The notes under the pieces are model-generated. The model was not told the origin of the DNA and made no database searches. It was given only the letters and a program-made list of their open reading frames with translations. This document shows, one piece after another, positions 1-7,944 of a stretch of DNA of 7,944 nucleotides. The stretch covers positions 1 through 7,944 of the IMG/VR virus record IMGVR_UViG_2585427761_000003. One strand, written 5' to 3'. The translations under genes were made by a program, and so were the position numbers. How positions within the stretch are numbered: the first letter of the stretch is position 1; every line of letters starts with the position of its first letter. This stretch comes from a virus. Lineage: Duplodnaviria > Heunggongvirae > Uroviricota > Caudoviricetes.

Positions 1-262
1 TGACAGTTTCGCGGGAGCCATCTGCAAAAATTGTGGTCACCTTGTAACTGAAGATGAGTCCTCGCAGTTTGATGACGAAATCGTTGACAATATCTTCGGT
101 GCACTCACCAGAGACTTTCTGAAGTAAAGGCGCATACCGCTTAGTTACCGCTCTGATAATTCTTACCTGTCCGGCAATGGCGCTGATATCAATATAAAGC
201 GCCATCGCTGTTTCTTTGCTGATCCCTGGATGCCTTCCATTCTGATGTTTGACTTCGCCCAC
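1..262 (-). CDS. hypothetical protein, 3'-truncated by window edge; gene immediately downstream of the repressor (moron position)
   Basis: Minus-strand frame is open from position 262 to the window edge with no stop; in-frame stop upstream at 286-284. Candidate starts: GTG 262-260 with SD-like AGAGGA (275-270) 7 nt upstream, or ATG 205-203. Translation from the ATG: MALYIDISAIAGQVRIIRAVTKRYAPLLQKVSGECTEDIVNDFVIKLRGLIFSYKVTTIFADGSRETV... Absent from the ORF track, presumably because no stop lies in the window. No family recognised. Confidence 0.5.
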   Translation of the reverse strand, partial: MGEVKHQNGRHPGISKETAMALYIDISAIAGQVRIIRAVTKRYAPLLQKVSGECTEDIVNDFVIKLRGLIFSYKVTTIFADGSRETV

Positions 263-340
263 TGAGAAATCCTCTGTTTCCCCTTAACGCCGGGGTAGCG
301 GAACTAAGACCTGTCGCACCGTTGTGCTTTGATGGAATAC

Positions 341-369
341 ATTGTTCTCTTTAGGTGAACGAAAGTCAA
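341..369 (-). promoter_or_regulatory. putative sigma70 promoter for the truncated minus-strand gene (-35 TTGACT, 17-nt spacer, -10 AACAAT)
   Basis: Minus-strand reading: TTGACT (369-364), 17 nt, AACAAT (346-341). Hexamers are identical to those of the putative rightward early promoter at 870-898. Spacer contains GTTCAC (plus-strand GTGAAC 355-360), the same half-site as the switch-region palindrome. Confidence 0.3.
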
Positions 370-383
370 CATGATGAATACGC

Positions 384-412
384 AAAAAAAAAAAAAACCG
401 CCTTGCGGCGGG
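384..412 (-). terminator. rho-independent terminator for the repressor transcript
   Basis: Plus strand shows A14 (384-397) then GC stem CCGCC (398-402), loop TTGC, GGCGG (407-411). On the minus strand this is a GC hairpin followed by a 14-U tract, 22 nt after the repressor stop (436-434). Confidence 0.8.
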
Positions 413-433
413 ATGATTCTGTAAAATAAAGAA

Positions 434-823
434 TTATTTTTGTCGTGTTATTGGGTCGACGTATTCTGAGTAAAATTCGGTCAGTTTTTGGAGTCGCATT
501 TGAAAAGCTGCCAGCATATTTCTACGTTCTACAGGTGGCAGGTTTCTGTAAACATCAAGCAGGGCCTTCTCGTCATCATCAAGCGCCTCTCTATTTGTCT
601 CTTCTTTCCCTGTCAGTAGCCAAGAAAGGGAAACGTTTGTGGCTTCTGCAATTTTGGCTGCGGAATCTTTACTGATTGTTCCTCTTTTTTTCCATGCGTT
701 GACTGATGAACGACCTACACCAGCGATACGCGCTAAATCTGAACCACTTAAATGATGCTGTTGAGAGATCGTATCTAACCTTTCTGCTAGCGGGGTGTCG
801 TATTGCTTTTTTCTCATGTCCAT
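434..823 (-). CDS. XRE-family helix-turn-helix phage repressor (CI functional analogue), 129 aa, no peptidase domain
   Basis: ORF-track ORF 434..823. HTH signature LSGSDLARIAGVGRSSVNAWKKRG near the N-terminus. Divergent from the Cro-like gene. Only 129 aa, so no room for an S24 (LexA-like) autocleavage domain. The -10 TATAAT (835-830) ends 6 nt before the ATG (823-821), suggesting a leaderless mRNA. Confidence 0.85.
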   Translation of the reverse strand: MDMRKKQYDTPLAERLDTISQQHHLSGSDLARIAGVGRSSVNAWKKRGTISKDSAAKIAEATNVSLSWLLTGKEETNREALDDDEKALLDVYRNLPPVERRNMLAAFQMRLQKLTEFYSEYVDPITRQK

Positions 824-926
824 TTGGCAATTATAACCGTTCAGTGAACACTAACAATTCCTCGAGGTGTTGACTTGTGTTCGTTTTAAGTGAACAATCG
901 TTGTGGTTAGTTGAACTGGAGGTTGT
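824..926. promoter_or_regulatory. immunity switch region: divergent back-to-back promoters and operator-like repeats
   Basis: Leftward promoter (minus strand): -35 TTGTTA (857-852), 16-nt spacer, -10 TATAAT (835-830). Rightward promoter: -35 TTGACT (870-875), 17-nt spacer, -10 AACAAT (893-898), then SD GGAGG (918-922) and ATG 927. Perfect 11-bp palindrome GTTCAgTGAAC at 839-849 lies in the leftward promoter spacer. Related sites: GTTAGTTGAAC at 906-916 (8/11 match) and AGTGAACA at 843-850 and 889-896. Confidence 0.6.
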
Positions 927-1202
927 ATGACAGCATTGGACAAAGCAATAAAGATTGCTGGTGGTATTCGTCCGCTAGGGCGTGCAATAGGGGCTTGGCC
1001 ATCTCAAATACACAAATGGGCAAATGAATACAATGGTCGAGTGCCGACGGGAGAACGGGTTCGTCAAATTTATATTGCAACTGGGGTTACTCCTCATGAA
1101 TTGCGACCAGATTTATACCCGAATCCAACTGACGGGTTGCCTGCTGGAGATAAGGCTAACACACCAAATACACCGGAGTTGATTCATGAAAATCAAGCAT
1201 GA
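927..1202 (+). CDS. Cro-like DNA-binding protein, YdaS family
   Basis: ORF-track ORF. First rightward gene, divergent from the repressor. Motifs A-x-x-I-A-G-G...LGRAIG...P-x-Q-I-x-K-W...TG-V-x-P-x-ELRPD match my recollection of the YdaS/Cro-like family of Rac-type prophages. Good SD GGAGG 4 nt before the ATG. Confidence 0.8.
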   Translation: MTALDKAIKIAGGIRPLGRAIGAWPSQIHKWANEYNGRVPTGERVRQIYIATGVTPHELRPDLYPNPTDGLPAGDKANTPNTPELIHENQA

Positions 1203-1611
1203 ACACATCCGCATGGCGATGAATGCCTGGGCGCGTCCTGATGGCGAAAAAGTTCCAGCAGCTGGAATAACCCAGGCTTATTTTGAGTTGGGTATGACGT
1301 TTCCTGAACTGTATGACGACAGCCATCCGGAAGCCCTGGCTCGCAATACACAGAAAATTTTCCGCTGGGTAGAGAAAGACACCCCTGATGCAGTTGAAAA
1401 AATTCAGGCGTTGTTACCAGCGATCGAAAAGGCAATGCCACCTTTGCTGGTGGCCAGAATGCGCAGCCACAGTTCAGCTTATTTTCGGGAGCTGGTGGAG
1501 ACGCGGGAGCGACTGGTGAGAGACGCTGATGATTTTGTCGCAGTGGCAATCGCCGGTTTCAATCAGATGAACCGTGGTGGCCCGGCAGGAAATGCTGTGG
1601 CAGTACATTGA
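1186..1611 (+). CDS. YdaT-family protein (annotated historically as toxin YdaT; CII-position regulator)
   Basis: ORF-track ORF. N-terminus MKIKHEHI, internal KIQALLPAI and C-terminal AVAVH match my recollection of E. coli Rac YdaT. Overlaps the Cro-like gene by 17 nt; SD GGAG 7 nt upstream of ATG 1186. Confidence 0.75.
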   Translation: MKIKHEHIRMAMNAWARPDGEKVPAAGITQAYFELGMTFPELYDDSHPEALARNTQKIFRWVEKDTPDAVEKIQALLPAIEKAMPPLLVARMRSHSSAYFRELVETRERLVRDADDFVAVAIAGFNQMNRGGPAGNAVAVH

Positions 1612-1682
1612 CTGACAATAGCCATATCGAATCGCTTCCGGCAACTCGTGAGTAAAATGATTCGGTATCAGAAGAGGTGAGT

Positions 1683-2753
1683 ATGGCTAACGCCTGGCTC
1701 AGATTATGGCATGACATGCCAAATGACCCTAAGTGGCGAACAATTGCCAGGGTGTCAGGGCAGCCAATTGCAACAGTGATGGCAGTGTATATCCACCTCC
1801 TGGTGAGCGCGTCACGAAATGTCACGCGAGGTCACATTGATGTCACGACAGAAGATTTGGCAAGTGCGCTCGACGTGACAGAAGAGGTAATTGATTCAAT
1901 TTTGCAGACGATGCAGGGGCGGGTACTTGATGGTGATTTAATCACTGGATGGGAAAAACGCCAGGTGCTGAAAGAGGACAACGGCAATATTTCGCAAACC
2001 GCAAAATCTCCTGCAGAGCGCAAGAGGGCGCAGCGAGAGAGGGAAAGAAAGCGGGAACAAAATGGCGATTGTCACGGCGCGTCACGAAATGTCACGCACA
2101 TGTCACGACGAGTCACGACAGATAAAGATACAGATAAAGATACAGATCAAGAAGATCAAAACACTATGGTCCATGGCGTAAAAAACGCCACGAACCAGGC
2201 AGGGGATGTTCAGACCGTCAATCCTGGTCAGCCAGCAGGCACGACACCGGAAGCCGATTCAGCGTATGCGCTGAAAGCCGATTCGGGCGCTGTGCAGCAG
2301 GTGATGACCGCAAGGCCGGAGCAATCACACCAACTGCAGCAGCCTGAAGCCGATTCCGCCATTCAGCGGGAAGCCGATCGGGTAGTCCCGGAAAGCACCG
2401 GGCAGTCTGTGGGACGAGTGGATTATCCGGATGTGTTCGAACAGGTCTGGCGGGAATACCCGTTGCGTGCCGGGGCAAACCCGAAGAAATCCGCTTTCAG
2501 TGCCTGGAAGGCCAGATTGCGCGAGGGGGTGCCACCAGAGACCATGCTGGATGGTGTGAGGCGTTACGCGAGATACCTGGCGGCGACCGGGAAAGCGGGA
2601 ACGGAATTTGTTCAGCGAGCGACGACGTTTTTTGGGCCGGACCGGAATTTTGAAAACCCCTGGTTGCTCCCGGTAAGCGGCACGAACAACCAGCGTTGTG
2701 TGAATCATATTTCTGAACCGGATACCGAAATTCCGCCGGGATTCAGGGGGTGA
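1683..2753 (+). CDS. phage replication initiation protein (lambda O functional analogue; YdaU-like) containing the putative origin iterons
   Basis: ORF-track ORF 1677..2753 begins at GTG 1677; ATG 1683 with SD AAGAGG (1672-1677) is the more likely start. Immediately precedes the DnaC-like gene with 6-nt spacing. Gene body holds two iteron arrays (see repeat features). The assignment rests on gene order, iterons and a recalled resemblance of the C-terminal region (YPDVFEQVWREYP...FFGPDRNFENPW) to YdaU-type replication proteins. Confidence 0.7.
   Translation: MANAWLRLWHDMPNDPKWRTIARVSGQPIATVMAVYIHLLVSASRNVTRGHIDVTTEDLASALDVTEEVIDSILQTMQGRVLDGDLITGWEKRQVLKEDNGNISQTAKSPAERKRAQRERERKREQNGDCHGASRNVTHMSRRVTTDKDTDKDTDQEDQNTMVHGVKNATNQAGDVQTVNPGQPAGTTPEADSAYALKADSGAVQQVMTARPEQSHQLQQPEADSAIQREADRVVPESTGQSVGRVDYPDVFEQVWREYPLRAGANPKKSAFSAWKARLREGVPPETMLDGVRRYARYLAATGKAGTEFVQRATTFFGPDRNFENPWLLPVSGTNNQRCVNHISEPDTEIPPGFRG
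1807..1879 (+). repeat. iteron array 1: four direct GTCAC(G/A) repeats at about 10-bp phasing plus one inverted copy
   Basis: GTCACG at 1811, 1821 and 1842; GTCACA at 1831 (spacing 10, 10, 11 bp); inverted CGTGAC at 1874-1879. The 21-mer GCGCGTCACGAAATGTCACGC (1807-1827) recurs exactly at 2077-2097. Confidence 0.65.
2071..2160 (+). repeat. iteron array 2 (five direct GTCACG repeats) followed by an A+T-rich tandem repeat; candidate origin core
   Basis: GTCACG at 2071, 2081, 2091, 2102, 2112 (spacing 10, 10, 11, 10 bp). Directly followed by GATAAAGATACA x2 and GATCAAGAA/GATCAAAAC (2121-2160), which is A+T-rich, holds two GATC sites and encodes DKDTDKDTDQEDQ. Confidence 0.6.
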
Positions 2754-2759
2754 TGTGGC

Positions 2760-3506
2760 ATGAAAAACATTGCGGCAGCCGGGGTTCTTGAACGTATTCG
2801 CAGACTTGCACCACAGGCGTCGGTTCCACCGTACCGGACGGTGGAGGAGTGGCGGGAATGGCAACTTGCTGAAGGACGAAAACGCAGCGAGGAGATTAAC
2901 CGCCAGAATCACCAGTTGCGGGTGGAAAAAATCCTGAATCGTTCGGGCATCCAGCCTCTGCACAGCAAATGCTCGTTTGCGAATTATCAGGTGCAGAACG
3001 ACGGGCAAAAATACGCGCTGAGCCAGGCCAAATCCATAGCTGACGAACTGATGACCGGGTGCACGAATTTTGTGTTCAGCGGTAAGCCGGGTACCGGAAA
3101 GAATCATCTGGCAGCAGCCATTGGCAACCATCTTCTGGCGAAAGGTCGCAGCGTGATTGTGGTGACGGTGGCGGATGTGATGCTGGCGTTACACGGCAAC
3201 TACGACAACAAAAACTCGGGCGAAAAGTTTTTGCAGGGGTTGTGTGAAGTTGACCTGCTTATCCTGGATGAAATCGGTATGCAGCGGGATACGCGTAACG
3301 AACAGGTCACACTGAACCAGATAGTCGATCGCAGAACGGCCTCGATGCACAGCGTCGGGATGCTGACGAACCTGAACCATGCGGCGATGAATACGCTGCT
3401 TGGTGAGCGCGTGATGGACCGCATGACCATGAACGGTGGTCGCTGGGTGAATTTTAACTGGGAGAGCTGGCGTTCAAATGTCAGTCATTTAAGGGTTGCG
3501 AAGTAA
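2760..3506 (+). CDS. DnaC-like replicative helicase loader (phage P/YdaV analogue), AAA+ ATPase
   Basis: ORF-track ORF. Walker A FSGKPGTGKNHLAAAIG, Walker B DLLILDEIG, and long stretches matching E. coli DnaC as I recall it (NRSGIQPLH, NQIVDRR, GMLTN, LLGERVMDRM, NFNWESWRS). Starts 6 nt after the initiator stop. Confidence 0.95.
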   Translation: MKNIAAAGVLERIRRLAPQASVPPYRTVEEWREWQLAEGRKRSEEINRQNHQLRVEKILNRSGIQPLHSKCSFANYQVQNDGQKYALSQAKSIADELMTGCTNFVFSGKPGTGKNHLAAAIGNHLLAKGRSVIVVTVADVMLALHGNYDNKNSGEKFLQGLCEVDLLILDEIGMQRDTRNEQVTLNQIVDRRTASMHSVGMLTNLNHAAMNTLLGERVMDRMTMNGGRWVNFNWESWRSNVSHLRVAK

Positions 3507-3520
3507 TTTCAGGAGGACTC

Positions 3521-3913
3521 ATGGCAAGCGTTTTTACACCTGAACAGCGGGAAGAACTGAAGGCACGAATTATCGGGCTGGTACACAGGAACAAACGCAT
3601 GACGATGTCGCAACTGGAGAGGGCAACGGGGGCGGGCTGGCATACGGTCAGACGTTGTCTTGTGGATGTGGTTGCTTGTGGTGATTTGTACATATCCGGT
3701 AAATACGGTGTTTTTGTATCAGAACAGGCGTATCAGGCGTGGTGTAAAACTCCGAAGAAAGCTGCCCCGGCACTGGTCCGGAAGTTACCTGATGGTGAAA
3801 TCCGTCGCTACGACAGAGACATGAACATAATTTGCCGGGAATGCCGTAACAGCGAATCAATGCAACGTGTACTGGCGTTCTATCGGGGTAATTTTCAGGA
3901 GGTGATGGAGTGA
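3521..3913 (+). CDS. hypothetical protein (130 aa)
   Basis: ORF-track ORF. Strong SD AGGAGG (3511-3516) 4 nt before the ATG. The N-terminal region (ELKARIIGLVHRNKRMTMSQLERATGAGWHTVRRCL) looks like a winged-helix segment. Family not recognised with confidence. Confidence 0.7.
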   Translation: MASVFTPEQREELKARIIGLVHRNKRMTMSQLERATGAGWHTVRRCLVDVVACGDLYISGKYGVFVSEQAYQAWCKTPKKAAPALVRKLPDGEIRRYDRDMNIICRECRNSESMQRVLAFYRGNFQEVME

Positions 3914-4209
3914 GGGTGAGGGTTTATATCGCCGGTCCGATGACCGGGTATAAAAATTTCAACCGTGAGGCGTTCCACAAGGCGGAAGAGGAACTGAAAC
4001 GGGAAGGGCATACAGTCTTAAACCCGGCAGTACTTCCGGACGGGCTGACACAGCCGCACTACATGGATATTTGCATGTCAATGATACGCTGCGTGGATGC
4101 GATTTACATGCTGAAAGGCTGGCAGCGGTCGGCAGGCGCTAAGGCAGAACTGGCACTGGCGGAGAAGCTGGGGCATGCAGTTATTTTCCAGGAGGCAAAC
4201 AGTGAGTAA
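3910..4209 (+). CDS. DUF4406-like protein (nucleoside 2-deoxyribosyltransferase-like fold), 99 aa
   Basis: ORF-track ORF. GTG start overlaps the upstream stop (GTGA); SD AGGAGG (3897-3902) with 7-nt spacing. N-terminal VYIAGPMTG motif, then NP-x-x-LP and W-x-RS-x-GA-x-AE-x-A-x-A-x-K-x-G-x-V, matching my recollection of the DUF4406 / NDT-like family. Confidence 0.7.
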   Translation: MRVRVYIAGPMTGYKNFNREAFHKAEEELKREGHTVLNPAVLPDGLTQPHYMDICMSMIRCVDAIYMLKGWQRSAGAKAELALAEKLGHAVIFQEANSE

Positions 4210-4666
4210 CCAATGGCGACCAGATATTTGCCCAATAACCGGACGTGCATTTTTCATGTGGATTGAGCATCCGAAATTGGGAAATGTACCGACGTATGGT
4301 GGCCCATTAGACAGTTACACCATTCCAACAAAGGACAGCGATGGTGAGTTTTCGTGTGAGCGTTACGATCATGATTTCGGTGGCTGGGTAGAAAGCGAAT
4401 GTCTAGGGTTATATCTGATTGATGATGAAGAACAATGCAGAGTCTACGAACTCGAGGAGCGCGTTAAAGAGCTGGAAGCGCGGGAAGTTCATTTACCGAC
4501 TCGCTACGGCCTTCGATATGGACATCCGATAAATGCTGATGAGCGCCACGTCATGATACCTAAAGAAAATGGCTGCTGGATTTATCTGGCTGATTTAGAG
4601 CACGTACTACGTGTTGCTGGTATTCGCATCAAAGGAGAGGAGCATGGAAATAAAACCAGAAGATGA
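4202..4666 (+). CDS. hypothetical protein (about 154 aa from GTG 4202; 163 aa if ATG 4175 is used)
   Basis: ORF-track ORF 4175..4666. I prefer GTG 4202 because of the strong SD GGAGG (4191-4195) with 6-nt spacing and a minimal 8-nt overlap with the upstream stop; ATG 4175 has a weak SD and a 35-nt overlap. Acidic, Cys-containing; family not recognised. Confidence 0.6.
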   Translation: MSNQWRPDICPITGRAFFMWIEHPKLGNVPTYGGPLDSYTIPTKDSDGEFSCERYDHDFGGWVESECLGLYLIDDEEQCRVYELEERVKELEAREVHLPTRYGLRYGHPINADERHVMIPKENGCWIYLADLEHVLRVAGIRIKGEEHGNKTRR

Positions 4667-5000
4667 GTTAAGTAATATTGTTTTATTTCCGGTAAAAGAG
4701 GATGACCCACGTAATCAGGTTAATTTTCTTTATGAGCCATCGGAAAGACCATATTGTCATCACGCCTCTGTCCGGGTTGACGAAAAAGAGCGTCAGGTCC
4801 GTTGTAAAATCTGCGGTGCAGTTGTGGAGCCGTTTGACTGGATGCTCTCTGTGGCGAAAAGAGAAACCAGACTGGCAGATGATGTAAGGCTATTGCGCCA
4901 GGAGGAACAGGAAAGGCGGAAAAATATAGAAAAGTTAATTCAGATTGAACGTAACGCGAAAGCGCGGATACGCAGGGCGACAAAATCCAGAACTGAATAA
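4644..5000 (+). CDS. hypothetical protein with Cys/His cluster and basic coiled-coil-like C-terminus (118 aa)
   Basis: ORF-track ORF 4611..5000; likely start is ATG 4644, preceded by AAAGGAGAGG (4631-4640). C-x-H-H ... C-K-I-C arrangement (PYCHHASVRVDEKERQVRCKICG) suggests a zinc-ribbon-like element. C-terminal 45 aa are rich in R/K/E/Q. Confidence 0.65.
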   Translation: MEIKPEDELSNIVLFPVKEDDPRNQVNFLYEPSERPYCHHASVRVDEKERQVRCKICGAVVEPFDWMLSVAKRETRLADDVRLLRQEEQERRKNIEKLIQIERNAKARIRRATKSRTE

Positions 5001-5095
5001 ATAAATTTAGTGCTGTAAATAAAAATTTAATCCTTAACCGGAGGGATTTCTGCACCCTCAAAACATCAGGAGGCCGCCTGAAAGGGCGGTAAGAA

Positions 5096-5314
5096 ATGAC
5101 TACATTATTCAGAAAAGAATATCCGAGAAAAAGTAGAGCGACAGAATTTTTGTTTCTCATTATATTTATCGTGTTGATGATACCGATACCCCCGCTATTA
5201 CTGGTCTGGTTTATCGTGAAAATAATTGAGCCAGTTATTGAATTGTATAACGACGTGGTGTGGGCGTCGTTCAGCACACTGCACAATAAAATTAATCCGT
5301 ATAAGGAAAGCTGA
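5096..5314 (+). CDS. small predicted membrane protein (72 aa) in an AT-rich insert
   Basis: ORF-track ORF. Hydrophobic core FLFLIIFIVLMIPIPPLLLVWFIVKII is consistent with one transmembrane helix. Stop (5312-5314) is 1 nt before the HNH start codon. SD is weak (AGGGCGG, 5083-5089), so confidence is moderate. Confidence 0.4.
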   Translation: MTTLFRKEYPRKSRATEFLFLIIFIVLMIPIPPLLLVWFIVKIIEPVIELYNDVVWASFSTLHNKINPYKES

Positions 5315-5315
5315 T

Positions 5316-5681
5316 ATGGCACTGACGAAAAAACAACGTGCAGAGCTGCGCATGAAGTTCGGCGGTCGCTGTGCTTATTGCGGCTGCGAACTTGGCGAAA
5401 AGTGGCATGCAGACCATGTAAAACCGGTCATTCGTTTTGATGGAAATATGCTTCACCAGGAACGTGACGATATATCCAATATGGTTCCGGCATGCCACCC
5501 ATGCAATCTGCACAAGCATTGCAGTAGTCTGGAAGATTATCGGCGAATTATCAGTGATGGTCGTCGTGAATTCCTTGCGTCCGGGAAAGGCAAAGCGCTG
5601 GTTCGTATGGGATTGGTTGAAATGAAATCTGACCCAGTTGTGTTCTGGTTTGAAAAATATCAAGAAGGGGCTACGGCATGA
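5316..5681 (+). CDS. HNH endonuclease (121 aa)
   Basis: ORF-track ORF 5226..5681 trimmed to ATG 5316, which has SD AAGGAAAG (5303-5310); the upstream extension is Cys/Trp-rich and unprotein-like. Classic HNH zinc-finger nuclease pattern: C-A-Y-C-G ... H-A-D-H-V-K-P ... [13 protein letters not shown]. Confidence 0.85.
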
Positions 5682-6022
5682 CGACTTTTACCAGAGAGCA
5701 GTTAATAGCTCACGCAGAGGAGACTATTGAAGCACAGAGACTGTGCATACCGGGCACAATCGACCATGACATCATCCGCACATATAAGATGGATATTGCT
5801 GTTCTGGAAATCGCACTGGTATCGCTGGCAGCAGAGCCAGCCGGTAAATTGCATGAATACAAACCAGTGGGATATCAGCGTCTGGTCGATGAGTTAACCA
5901 TGCTGGTAAAGCAGTTAACCTGGCAACTGAGGAAAGCGAAGCCAGACTGCAAATTACCGGATAAGGCGATGAGTTATCTGGAGCGGAACGGACTGATAAG
6001 CGTGGAGGATATTTTACGATGA
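5678..6022 (+). CDS. hypothetical protein (114 aa)
   Basis: ORF-track ORF. ATGA start/stop overlap with the HNH gene; SD-like AGGGG 7 nt upstream. No family recognised. Confidence 0.7.
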
Positions 6023-6102
6023 CCTGGCCTGAAGCATTCACAACGGTAGGAATTGCGATGGCGGTGGCGCTGGTGGTGTATTCGATTTGCCGCTGGGGAT
6101 AA
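6019..6102 (+). CDS. putative 27-aa hydrophobic peptide, translationally coupled to the upstream gene
   Basis: ATG 6019-6021 overlaps the upstream stop TGA (6020-6022). Encodes [27 protein letters not shown], stop TAA 6100-6102. One potential membrane helix. Last ORF before the terminator. Below the size cutoff of the ORF track, so support is purely positional and compositional. Confidence 0.3.
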
Positions 6103-6109
6103 ATCGCCG

Positions 6110-6150
6110 AAAAAAGATCCCGACATAAACATGAGCCGGGATCTTTGATT
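6110..6150. terminator. bidirectional rho-independent terminator between convergent operons
   Basis: 10-bp perfect stem AAAGATCCCG (6113-6122) / CGGGATCTTT (6137-6146) with a 14-nt loop. On the minus strand the hairpin is followed by TTTTTT; on the plus strand by TTTGATTTAT. Lies between the end of the rightward operon (6102) and the end of parE (6228). Confidence 0.7.
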
Positions 6151-6227
6151 TATATAGCCTACGAATCCGCCAGTAAGAGAGGGGGGCGGACGGTTAATTC
6201 TAACACCGGAATGATGTGGGTAAAAGT

Positions 6228-6527
6228 TTATAAGAAATCGGTTTCATAACTTTGCCCACCATGATAGATACCGACAATAAAGACTTTTCTGCTATCAACG
6301 GCAAAAGCAATAATCGTTCTGTGGCGGAAATGAGTTACCCGCATCCCCTGGCGAATATCATCGCGTTTATTGCCCCGATGCGGGAATGTAGAAAACCCAT
6401 CAAGATAATCAAGAAGCGCATTGGCATAATTGTCAGCAATGACGTTCCCTGCTTTCTCCGTTATATACCTGTGCAGGTTGATTATTTGTTGTTCGGCCTC
6501 AGGAGTAATGATGACTTCATATGTCAT
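6228..6527 (-). CDS. parE: ParE/RelE-superfamily type II toxin (99 aa)
   Basis: ORF-track ORF. Starts 5 nt after the stop of a ParD-like RHH antitoxin gene on the same strand. Size and sequence (MTYEVIITPEAEQQI...RVTHFRHRTIIAFAVDSRKVFIVGIYHGGQ) fit the ParE/RelE fold pattern. Confidence 0.85.
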   Translation of the reverse strand: MTYEVIITPEAEQQIINLHRYITEKAGNVIADNYANALLDYLDGFSTFPHRGNKRDDIRQGMRVTHFRHRTIIAFAVDSRKVFIVGIYHGGQSYETDFL

Positions 6528-6532
6528 GCAGA

Positions 6533-6790
6533 TTACTTCCCGGATCGAATCGCGGCGCGAACCTGTGAAATGGAGCGTCCGTTGTTTGGGTTTTCGCGGA
6601 TAGAATCAAGAGAGGGGGCGGCTGAATGCGTTAACCACGCTTCGATTGCTTTATCGCGCTCATTCAGTGCGCGAAGCCCTTCACGAATGACCTCGCTTTC
6701 TGAAGCATAGGCACCGGAAGCCACACGGGCGCGCACCATGTCAGCCATTTCGTTAGTTAATGTAATGCTGAATTGTTGGGTTGTACGCAT
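6533..6790 (-). CDS. parD: ParD-family (ribbon-helix-helix) antitoxin, 85 aa
   Basis: ORF-track ORF 6533..6853 trimmed to ATG 6790-6788, which has SD GAGG with 6-nt spacing; the 21-aa upstream extension is Ser/Gly-rich and unprotein-like. MRTTQQFSITLTNEMADMVRARVASGAYASESEVIREGLRALNERDKAIEAWL matches the ParD pattern (N-terminal beta-strand, G-x-Y-x-S-x-SEV-R-x-x-LR-x-L). Confidence 0.85.
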   Translation of the reverse strand: MRTTQQFSITLTNEMADMVRARVASGAYASESEVIREGLRALNERDKAIEAWLTHSAAPSLDSIRENPNNGRSISQVRAAIRSGK

Positions 6791-6925
6791 GGTAAACCTC
6801 ACGGAGTAGGATAGAACACCATTCGATGATAGCACGTTGCCTGTTGACGACAACAGAAATCAGAGACAATATTGCCGCACGCCAGCTTGAACAACTGGCA
6901 CCTGCTGCGCCAGCAGAGAAAACCG
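6791..6925. promoter_or_regulatory. putative parDE promoter/operator and divergent rightward promoter
   Basis: Minus strand: -35 TTGTCG (6853-6848), 16-nt spacer, -10 TATCAT (6831-6826). Inverted repeat CTGTTG-acga-CAACAG (6841-6856) overlaps this -35 and also a plus-strand TTGACG (6844-6849). A palindrome over the promoter fits RHH antitoxin autoregulation. Hexamer assignments are weak. Confidence 0.35.
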
Positions 6926-7198
6926 ATGGCGCACAATACCAAACATCACAATTCTGATATCGCCCCTGCCAGCAGGCAAGGGCGGTGTTCTCACACATTC
7001 AAATATGACTGGTATCAGCACGATCCCTGCACTGAAGAACAGGCCGAATGGCTGATTCATAACTACCGCAGACGTGGGTATGAGTTTAAGAAAGCCCTTA
7101 GCCTCGACTACCGTCACTGGATAATCTACGTCAGGCTCCTTTATTCCGAACGCCCGCCGCGTCCGTCCCGCACATTCCAGCAACGCATCTGGAGGTAA
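6926..7198 (+). CDS. hypothetical protein (90 aa from ATG 6926; 108 aa if TTG 6872 is used)
   Basis: ORF-track ORF 6872..7198 begins at a TTG. ATG 6926 keeps the start outside the putative divergent promoter region. Rich in aromatic and basic residues, Cys/His at the N-terminus (CSHTFKYDWYQHDPC). Stop is 1 nt before the GTG start of the DUF968-like gene. No family recognised. Confidence 0.45.
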   Translation: MAHNTKHHNSDIAPASRQGRCSHTFKYDWYQHDPCTEEQAEWLIHNYRRRGYEFKKALSLDYRHWIIYVRLLYSERPPRPSRTFQQRIWR

Positions 7199-7199
7199 C

Positions 7200-7944
7200 G
7201 TGCGGGTATTACTTCGACCTGTTCTGGTACCGGAACTCGGGCTGGTGATCGTTAAGCCGGGCCGTGAATCCATGCCGGTATTCCACAATACCCGGGTACT
7301 GGTGGAGCCGGAACCGAAAAGCATGCGTAATCTGCCGTCCGGGGTTGTTCCTGCCGTTCGCCAGCCGCTAGTGGAAGACAAAACATTGCTGCCGTTTTTC
7401 AGTAACGCACGGGTGATTCGTGCTGCTGGTGGTGCTGGTGCATTGTCTGACTGGCTGTTGCGCCATATTAAATCCTGCCAGTGGCCACACGGCGATTATC
7501 ATCACAGCGAAACCGTCATTCACCGTTATGGTACCGGCGCAATGGTGTTGTGCTGGCACTGCGACAACCAGCTGCGCGACCAGACATCCGAATCACTCGG
7601 GCAGCTTGCTCAACAAAATCTGACAGCCTGGATGATTGACGTCATCGGTCACGCAATAAGCGGTACGCAGGAGCGTGAATTATCTCTGGCTGAATTATCC
7701 TGGTGGGCGGTCCGCAATCAGGTGGCGGACGCGCTACCGGAAGCGGTATTACGTCGTTCGCTGGGGTTGCGTGCGGAAAAAATCCGCTCAATGTACCGTG
7801 AAAGCGACATCGTGCCGGGAGAGCAGACCGCCACCAGCATACTGAAACAGCGCACAAAAAATCTTGCGCCGCTGCCTCACGCCCACCAGCAACAGAACCC
7901 ACCACAGGAAAAGACGGTGGTCAGCATTGCCGTTGATCCTGAGT
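7200..7944 (+). CDS. DUF968-like prophage protein, 3'-truncated by window edge; possible HNH-like Cys/His motif
   Basis: Not in the ORF track. Frame opens at GTG 7200 (the first possible start after the in-frame stop at 7122-7124), SD GGAGG (7191-7195), and I translated 248 codons to the window end without a stop. Begins VRVLLRPVLVPELGLVIVKPGRESMPVFHNT, which matches my recollection of DUF968 N-termini. Contains CQWPHGDYHHSETVIHRYGTGAMVLCWHCDN. The minus-strand ORFs listed here (6860..7381, 7368..7559, 7642..7905) have low-complexity translations and are treated as antisense artefacts. Confidence 0.7.
   Translation, partial: MRVLLRPVLVPELGLVIVKPGRESMPVFHNTRVLVEPEPKSMRNLPSGVVPAVRQPLVEDKTLLPFFSNARVIRAAGGAGALSDWLLRHIKSCQWPHGDYHHSETVIHRYGTGAMVLCWHCDNQLRDQTSESLGQLAQQNLTAWMIDVIGHAISGTQERELSLAELSWWAVRNQVADALPEAVLRRSLGLRAEKIRSMYRESDIVPGEQTATSILKQRTKNLAPLPHAHQQQNPPQEKTVVSIAVDPE

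Follow-up and report, generated by a model that had tools for sequence, protein, structure and literature searches.

A PL-like promoter and a probable antisense overlapping gene pair in the immunity region of a Rac/Qin-like lambdoid prophage

The stretch of DNA considered here, hereafter the window, comprises the 7,944 nucleotides (nt) at positions 1 to 7,944 of the IMG/VR virus record IMGVR_UViG_2585427761_000003, and it is the immunity and replication region of a Rac/Qin-like lambdoid prophage. Its left end, which is our main subject, carries beyond the terminator of the repressor gene a promoter, a minus-strand open reading frame (ORF) that runs off the left edge and, antisense to this ORF, the 3' part of a small zinc-ribbon gene (Table 1). 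The anatomy of this end, its conservation and the selection acting on the plus frame were established by computation. We read it as an early-left promoter with its operator (PL/OL), followed by the first ORF of the early-left operon, a member of the family phrog_21318, together with a self-contained antisense zinc-ribbon gene of 66 codons that has its own promoter, Shine-Dalgarno sequence and 3' hairpin; the probability that we attach to this reading is roughly 0.65. The promoter is a standard one, of which a close relative has been tested experimentally, and the possible antisense gene pair is the sole unusual aspect of the locus.

Table 1. Features at the left end of the window and the genes that follow the repressor
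Feature	Position	Strand	Basis or remarks
First early-left ORF, phrog_21318	1-262, off the left edge	minus	start GTG 262 (118 amino acids) or ATG 205 (99 amino acids)
ECs_2282-family zinc-ribbon gene, 3' part	2-127	plus	codons 26-66 and TAA stop; start and promoter outside the window
Conserved hairpin ATGGCGCT / AGCGCCAT	177-205, then U-rich 206-221	plus	13-nt loop; RNA folds, z = -3.0
Shine-Dalgarno sequence AGAGGA	270-275	minus	7 nt before GTG 262; read from the sequence
Conserved 28-nt leader linker GTTCCGCTACCCCGGCGTTAAGGGGAAA	278-305	minus	overlap of the immunity-module (277-930) and ORF-module (1-305) homologies
PL-like early-left promoter	369-341	minus	TTGACT-17-AACAAT; -35 at 369-364, -10 at 346-341; predicted transcription start ~334
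OL-type putative operator GTTCTCTTTAGGTGAAC (GTTC-N9-GAAC)	344-360	none	inside the PL spacer
Intrinsic terminator of the repressor gene	384-411	minus	terminator scan; stem CCGCC/GGCGG 411-398 (5 G-C pairs), run of 14 T 397-384
CI/DicA-like helix-turn-helix repressor, 129 amino acids	434-823	minus	
YdaS/Cro-like gene	927-1202		
YdaT/CII-like gene	1186-1611		
Replisome organiser gene	1677-2753		

A probable early-left promoter and its putative operator

The repressor gene, its terminator and the promoter succeed one another on the minus strand, all reading away from the repressor, so that a new transcription unit starts right after the terminator. Matches to the promoter hexamers are in themselves not above chance (three sites in 1300 nt against 2.1 expected), and the case for PL therefore rests on its being a copy of the rightward early promoter (PR), on the operator and on the conservation of the elements. 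The hexamers are identical to those that the promoter scan found at the rightward site (870-898), and the PL site and PR (868-898) together form a 31-nt inverted repeat that is 77% complementary. Exact copies of GTTC-N9-GAAC occur only twice in the 7944 bases, once in the spacer of each promoter (that of PR at 879-895), so that PL shares with the region of PR and the repressor maintenance promoter one clear OL site; copies with one mismatch are found at 839-855 and 900-916, between the repressor gene and cro. Matches to the operator pattern number 11 in total, against 3.1 expected, and none of 200 shuffles reached that count. Among the Escherichia coli relatives, whose immunity regions are 92-98% identical, the bases that vary lie between the conserved elements (-35 and -10 hexamers, operator half-sites, terminator stem): the -35 is TTGACT or, in two relatives, TTGACA, the -10 is invariant, and the terminator has an invariant stem and a variable loop. 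The strong terminator, the promoter with the hexamers of the rightward site, the new transcription unit beyond the terminator and its wiring into the repressor circuit had all been pointed out in a preliminary description of this DNA, and each of them is borne out here.

As the left flank itself lies outside the window, the course of the operon is taken from related loci. Those with the same ORF module continue with ydfC, dicF, dicB, an exonuclease gene, xis and int. In E. coli DCE7, which has the same immunity type as the window, ydfA-ydfB-ydfC-dicB follow, an order of genes that is also that of the dicBF operon behind dicBp. Three other immunity types precede the same ORF module, each with an OR-like repeat of its own 130-230 nt upstream of the module.

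The tested relative is PL933P of the CP-933P / Sp12 prophages of E. coli O157:H7, which like the window have YdaS/YdaT-type immunity, a promoter past the repressor operon with the hexamers of their own PR, and operators common to both promoters; beyond PL come the same ORF module (the ECs_2282 region), then ydfC and dicB. In Sakai Sp12 the module stands right after paaR2-paaA2-parE2 (ECs_2279 to ECs_2281), directly behind PL933P. This promoter is repressed ~100-fold by PaaR2 and YdaS (Jurenas et al. 2021, PMC8630535), and no function could be assigned to the ORFs downstream of it (PMC8630535). Unlike the window, CP-933P has PaaR2 as its repressor, with the operator consensus GTTTAGTAA, and paaA2-parE2 inserted between the repressor gene and PL; three OL sites are reported for it, as against one clear site in the window, and its repression was measured, whereas that of the window is predicted. 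A second analogue is dicBp of Qin, on which DicA exerts a 22-fold repression that the antirepressor Rem relieves (PMC10448788). Here too a short CI-like repressor without a cleavage domain is followed by a PL analogue and an operon with ydfC, dicF and dicB, but the repressor of the window scores only 37 bits on the DicA model (cut-off 101) and its first gene is phrog_21318, not ydfA/ydfB.

In phage lambda, PL/OL shares its operators with PR and heads the early-left operon, with gene N first. The promoter of the window resembles it in position, in orientation and in the operators shared with PR. The first ORF differs from N: it is not similar to it and lacks an arginine-rich motif, and Rfam, searched at gathering and E-value thresholds, returned neither a nut-like RNA nor any other RNA family in window 1-450, its sole match being DicF, farther left in a related locus. 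The idea that this ORF encodes an N-like antiterminator was rejected, as both the motif and a nut-like element are lacking.

By analogy with these systems, the promoter should be an ordinary repressor-controlled PL/OL. Given the operator in its spacer, its likeness to PR and its position, it is expected to be off in the lysogen.

Two open reading frames on opposite strands

From GTG 262 the minus-strand ORF has 87 codons inside the window, and from ATG 205 it has the 68 that the preliminary description took for the visible gene. GTG 262 is probably the start in the E. coli type, and otherwise ATG 205, since the former has AGAGGA just upstream, whereas the latter is ~130 nt from the predicted transcription start, has a poor Shine-Dalgarno sequence and lies inside an arm of an 8-11-bp hairpin. 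The position of AGAGGA serves a ydfA-like gene in E. coli EC12 and GTG 262 in the window, and in one relative (L097) the codon equivalent to GTG 262 is ATG. Start codon and Shine-Dalgarno sequence are conserved, the start outside E. coli being an ATG preceded by GGAG or GAGG. In every context the ORF runs in the same direction as the surrounding early operon, and in the homologues examined it always stops within a few codons of the plus-strand start.

The visible residues had been said to match nothing. The full-length ORF, however, matches phrog_21318 with E 4e-67 over residues 1-99 of 99 (its distant homologues with 1e-16 to 1e-36), a family without an assigned function, and it is found in a 163-member cluster of "hypothetical proteins"; Prokka, RAST and DFAST likewise call it a hypothetical protein in phage records. 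An exhaustive profile search of 1.84 billion representative proteins gave only 12 relatives. The family is thus narrow, and every member has an antisense partner. The other profile and structure searches that had been suggested were empty: neither Pfam nor NCBIfam has a family that covers the minus ORF, the protein of neither strand has a match in PDB sequence searches, and Foldseek with the model of the minus-strand protein gave no match at E <= 0.001. When genome contigs were scanned with profiles, the minus-ORF alignment found no matches and the plus-protein alignment two generic zinc-ribbon matches. By analogy with PL933P, the minus ORF is expected to be silent in the lysogen and early after induction.

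The preliminary description, while right that a minus-strand ORF is present, treated it as a single gene and overlooked the one encoded opposite to it. PGAP labels this plus-strand gene "ECs_2282 family putative zinc-binding protein", of 66 amino acids, in 937 E. coli genomes. A related locus, L002, has 100% identity to the window over 1-290 and supplies the full-length copy, for which NF047912 gives 57.4 bits (cut-off 37); the protein also matches phrog_4852 (E 1e-9). Of the 5426 complete E. coli genomes ~940 carry the locus, O157:H7 Sakai and O26:H11 strain 11368 among them. Every intact copy examined has 66 codons and four invariant cysteines, the motif CPEC...CKNC being invariant as CxxC...CxxC, of which the window itself contains the second pair only; copies with as little as ~45% identity still have the cysteines, the length, the start codon and the Shine-Dalgarno sequence. 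Plus and minus ORFs share their codon boundaries in an exact antisense register, in which the third positions of one face the first positions of the other. For the plus protein PADLOC gave nothing beyond sub-threshold noise, and a literature search found no paper that mentions ECs2282.

Upstream of the plus ORF, outside the window, the Shine-Dalgarno sequence is AGGA or GGAGG in all lineages and a TA...T is invariant; in most lineages TG precedes the latter, making a candidate extended -10 ~30 nt before the ATG. At the other end, the hairpin of Table 1 is paired to 92.6% as plus-strand RNA and to 81.5% as minus-strand RNA; four sequences have pairs in it that are G-U in plus-strand RNA and would be A-C mismatches in minus-strand RNA, and two of its pairs are changed on both sides. 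This hairpin probably ends the plus-strand mRNA or stabilises it. Promoter, gene and hairpin thus seem to make up one compact plus-strand unit, convergent with PL.

Several variants of this module were seen. In Citrobacter freundii (L004-L006, 3995-4519, minus strand) the minus ORF is fused in frame to ~90 upstream codons, the called protein having 174 amino acids, and in Enterobacter (L010, L011) it has a 40-codon extension that contains CKSC; its N-terminus is accordingly plastic. In Citrobacter amalonaticus and Klebsiella variicola (L007 and L008, 4004-4285, minus strand) the two-strand module stands not after the repressor gene but directly after the cro-like gene, at the cII position of the rightward early operon; there, too, the long ORF reads in the direction of the operon, and the zinc-ribbon gene lies antisense to that ORF. 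Just to the left of the window (L002 5860-5926, L004 3930-4000 and equivalents), a block GCCTG-N13-CAGGC...GGTGGTATCyT is more conserved than the coding sequence, and its small hairpin has a compensatory variant in L105 (CCGGG...CCCGG).

Constraint on the two frames and its interpretation

The window belongs to the E. coli clade, whose polymorphism was examined in 23 haplotypes and in a separate set of five more diverged E. coli-type sequences. In the haplotypes, 14 of the 19 variable columns of the overlap fall on plus-strand third positions, the changes being 13 synonymous and 6 non-synonymous in the plus frame; in the five diverged sequences the ratio of non-synonymous to synonymous differences (pN/pS) of that frame is 0.17, and over all comparisons it ranges from 0.12 to 0.39. 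On these patterns the plus-strand gene is clearly real. Defective copies of it in E. coli include one nonsense haplotype and the frameshifted proteins P0002, P0005 and P0012.

A wider comparison took in homologues down to ~45% identity from Citrobacter, Klebsiella, Enterobacter and metagenomes, nine lineages in all. Both ORFs are open in every intact homologue examined, and among the copies in which both frames were compared the sole one with an interrupted minus frame (L147) has a frameshift that disrupts both. When the avoidance of stop codons was counted on distinct (column, codon) states for Leu and Ser, none of the 47 states of the plus frame proved to be TCA, TTA or CTA, which would stop the minus frame (8.2 expected, approximate P = 1.2e-4), and none of the 39 states of the minus frame would stop the plus frame (6.6 expected, approximate P = 7.6e-4). 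Simulated selection on the plus frame only leaves the minus frame open in just ~10-22% of lineages at these divergences. Between clades, the minus-frame pN/pS of the overlap has a median of 0.71, against ~1.15 in a plus-only model that was tuned to the observed plus-frame pN/pS and whose 5% quantile is 0.71-0.77; at ~57 differences the observed value falls below that quantile. Moreover, the third positions of plus-strand codons 36-42 are invariant in 10 sequences. In the N-terminal part of the minus ORF, which is not overlapped, pN/pS outside E. coli is 0.30, while four of the five other frames give 1.0-1.5 and the fifth, a reverse frame that shares third positions with the minus ORF, gives 0.33. 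These comparisons point to constraint on both frames between clades, and a conserved antisense overlapping gene pair is what they make probable.

Of the other explanations, the one that survives best takes the plus-strand zinc-ribbon gene alone to be real. The minus frame would then be a shadow ORF, open through the antisense register, and the PL transcript would cross it as an untranslated or incidentally translated leader before ydfC and dicB. We hold this to be unlikely, though by no means negligible, and a number of results weigh in its favour and against our own reading. In the E. coli clade the minus frame varies as would a shadow free of constraint: its changes in the 23 haplotypes are 4 synonymous and 15 non-synonymous, its pN/pS in the five diverged sequences is 0.92 overall, and one E. 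coli pair gives 1.82 against 0.12 in the plus frame, as simulated plus-frame-only selection predicts. No protein-level constraint is thus evident on the minus ORF in the window's own clade, and its non-overlapped stretch (128-262) lacks three-base periodicity in E. coli. Where the N-terminus of the minus ORF is conserved, the DNA also encodes the 3' hairpin of the plus gene, so that RNA structure could explain part of this conservation, and PGAP favours the plus strand. The P values above are approximate because the compared sequences are mutually related and the data set is small. Nor is the anatomy without its weaker points: one strong operator is evident at PL, as against three in lambda and CP-933P; the -10 AACAAT is weak; a strict promoter scan calls no plus-strand promoter, the extended -10 being recognised by its conservation only; and both AlphaFold2 models are of low confidence (predicted local distance difference test scores 65 and 58), so that no fold-based inference was drawn. 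What speaks against a shadow ORF is the behaviour of the minus frame beyond E. coli, namely its openness in all nine lineages, the stop codons that it is spared, its conserved start and Shine-Dalgarno sequence, the low N-terminal pN/pS (with the exception of the reverse frame already mentioned), the between-clade pN/pS at ~57 differences and the block of invariant plus-strand third positions.

Alternatively, the minus ORF might be kept open merely because this spares the operon behind PL from Rho-dependent polarity, which would account for its openness and its conserved start but leaves the between-clade constraint at the amino-acid level unexplained.

Far less probable than a shadow ORF is the interpretation put forward in the preliminary description, namely that the lysogen expresses the minus ORF, from a promoter of its own and in a place like that of rexAB, as a moron for superinfection exclusion or defence. 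In lambda, rexAB share a transcript with cI, ahead of the immunity terminator, and the lysogen expresses them. The ORF of the window resembles them in adjoining the repressor gene on the same strand, and a moron would suit a promoter of its own past a terminator, a mosaic module that is swapped between immunity regions and the lack of any function assigned to the minus ORF. However, a terminator separates this ORF from the repressor gene, whereas rexAB lie upstream of the terminator, and the ORF has an operator-bearing promoter; a promoter downstream of the repressor terminator, on the same strand and with the operator of the repressor, therefore occupies the PL/OL slot and not that of rexAB. 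In addition, the promoter is an inverted copy of PR, the counterpart PL933P is strongly repressed by a CI analogue, PADLOC has no defence-model match for the minus ORF or its distant homologues, and the ORF heads the early-left operon in every related locus. Since the promoter is a PL with a tested close relative, the minus ORF would be an expected early gene rather than a defence gene of the lysogen; the preliminary description was thus largely right about the anatomy, though not about its interpretation. If anything here is a lysogen-expressed moron, it would be the plus-strand zinc-ribbon gene rather than the minus ORF. Finally, the idea that the minus ORF alone is real and the ECs_2282 "family" an annotation artefact on a shadow frame agrees with the phage annotators, who call the minus ORF alone, and with the existence of a PHROGs family, but hardly merits belief in the face of the low plus-frame pN/pS (0.12-0.17) and third-position variation in E. 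coli, the features of the plus gene that are kept to ~45% identity, the avoidance by the minus frame of codons that would stop the plus frame, and the match of the plus protein to the independent family phrog_4852.

Returning to the gene pair, we can sketch how PL and the two ORFs might work together. The repressor would bind GTTC-N9-GAAC in the PL spacer and keep PL off in the lysogen, where the zinc-ribbon cassette would be expressed for as long as PL is repressed. Derepression would probably come about via an antirepressor, as the repressor has no cleavage domain. Derepressed PL would give a transcript running through the ~70-nt leader, the structure of which is not unusual, and through the phrog_21318 ORF into the early-left genes; from this transcript, we infer, the minus ORF would be translated. 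As the two transcripts converge and are fully complementary, the zinc-ribbon gene would be silenced, once PL fires, by transcriptional interference or duplex RNA. It is conceivable, although we entertain it only tentatively, that the whole is a strand-switching module coupled to the immunity switch: an antiparallel pair lodged in the same codons and kept across prophages of Escherichia, Citrobacter, Klebsiella and Enterobacter, between convergent promoters, with the state of the repressor choosing the protein that is made, the zinc-ribbon protein in the lysogen and that of 99-118 amino acids after PL has fired.

Annotation traditions are split over the same 200 bp, PGAP and NCBIfam following the plus strand and PHROGs, Prokka and RAST the minus strand; judging from the constraint on both frames, both calls may be correct. 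The pair would then be an antisense gene overlap of unusual age and spread, situated where transcription from one side excludes that from the other. Comparable protein-coding genes are asa, pop, laoB and ano of enterohaemorrhagic E. coli (PMC6294744, PMC7103648, PMC5810103 and PMC5960689), the title of the laoB paper stating that it "originated by overprinting". In these, as probably in the window, a protein-coding ORF is embedded antisense in another and annotation pipelines retain one strand. The four are reportedly young and taxonomically narrow, the laoB title alone among them pointing that way. The partners in the window, by contrast, persist over nine lineages and several genera, the better-supported of the two is the short embedded one, and the pair lies between convergent promoters (the plus-strand one putative) at a prophage switch.

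Mosaic joints and other features of the window

Homology to the immunity module of the window extends over 277-930 and is found in 1004 E. coli genomes, whereas that to the ORF module extends over 1-305 and is found in 937. The exact junction of the two, as it occurs in the window, was present in none of the 5426 complete E. coli genomes. The modules overlap in the leader linker GTTCCGCTACCCCGGCGTTAAGGGGAAA, which lies between PL and the Shine-Dalgarno sequence of the first gene and is common to four contexts with differing immunity regions or first genes; it coincides with the mosaic joint at which the immunity module meets that of the first gene. Within the linker is a small CCCC/GGGG hairpin, and Rfam has no family that matches the linker.

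To the right of the repressor gene the window encodes, besides the genes of Table 1, an IstB-like loader that accompanies the replisome organiser. Inside the replisome-organiser gene, at 1810-1870 and 2070-2152, are iteron-like GTCACG repeats (TGTCACGACA five times) and three copies of ACAGATAAAGAT; this is probably the replication origin. A parDE-type toxin-antitoxin pair (6228-6527 and 6533-6853, both on the minus strand) lies on the strand opposite to that of its neighbours and matches ParE_toxin (E 4e-10) and a ParD/RHH antitoxin (E 1.6e-7); instead of such a pair elsewhere, related prophages have paaA2-parE2 or higBA between the repressor gene and PL. Downstream of the replication genes there is an HNH endonuclease ORF (5316-5681, plus strand), and an ORF of 129 amino acids at 4611-5000 (plus strand) has a weak match to a TFIIB-type zinc ribbon.

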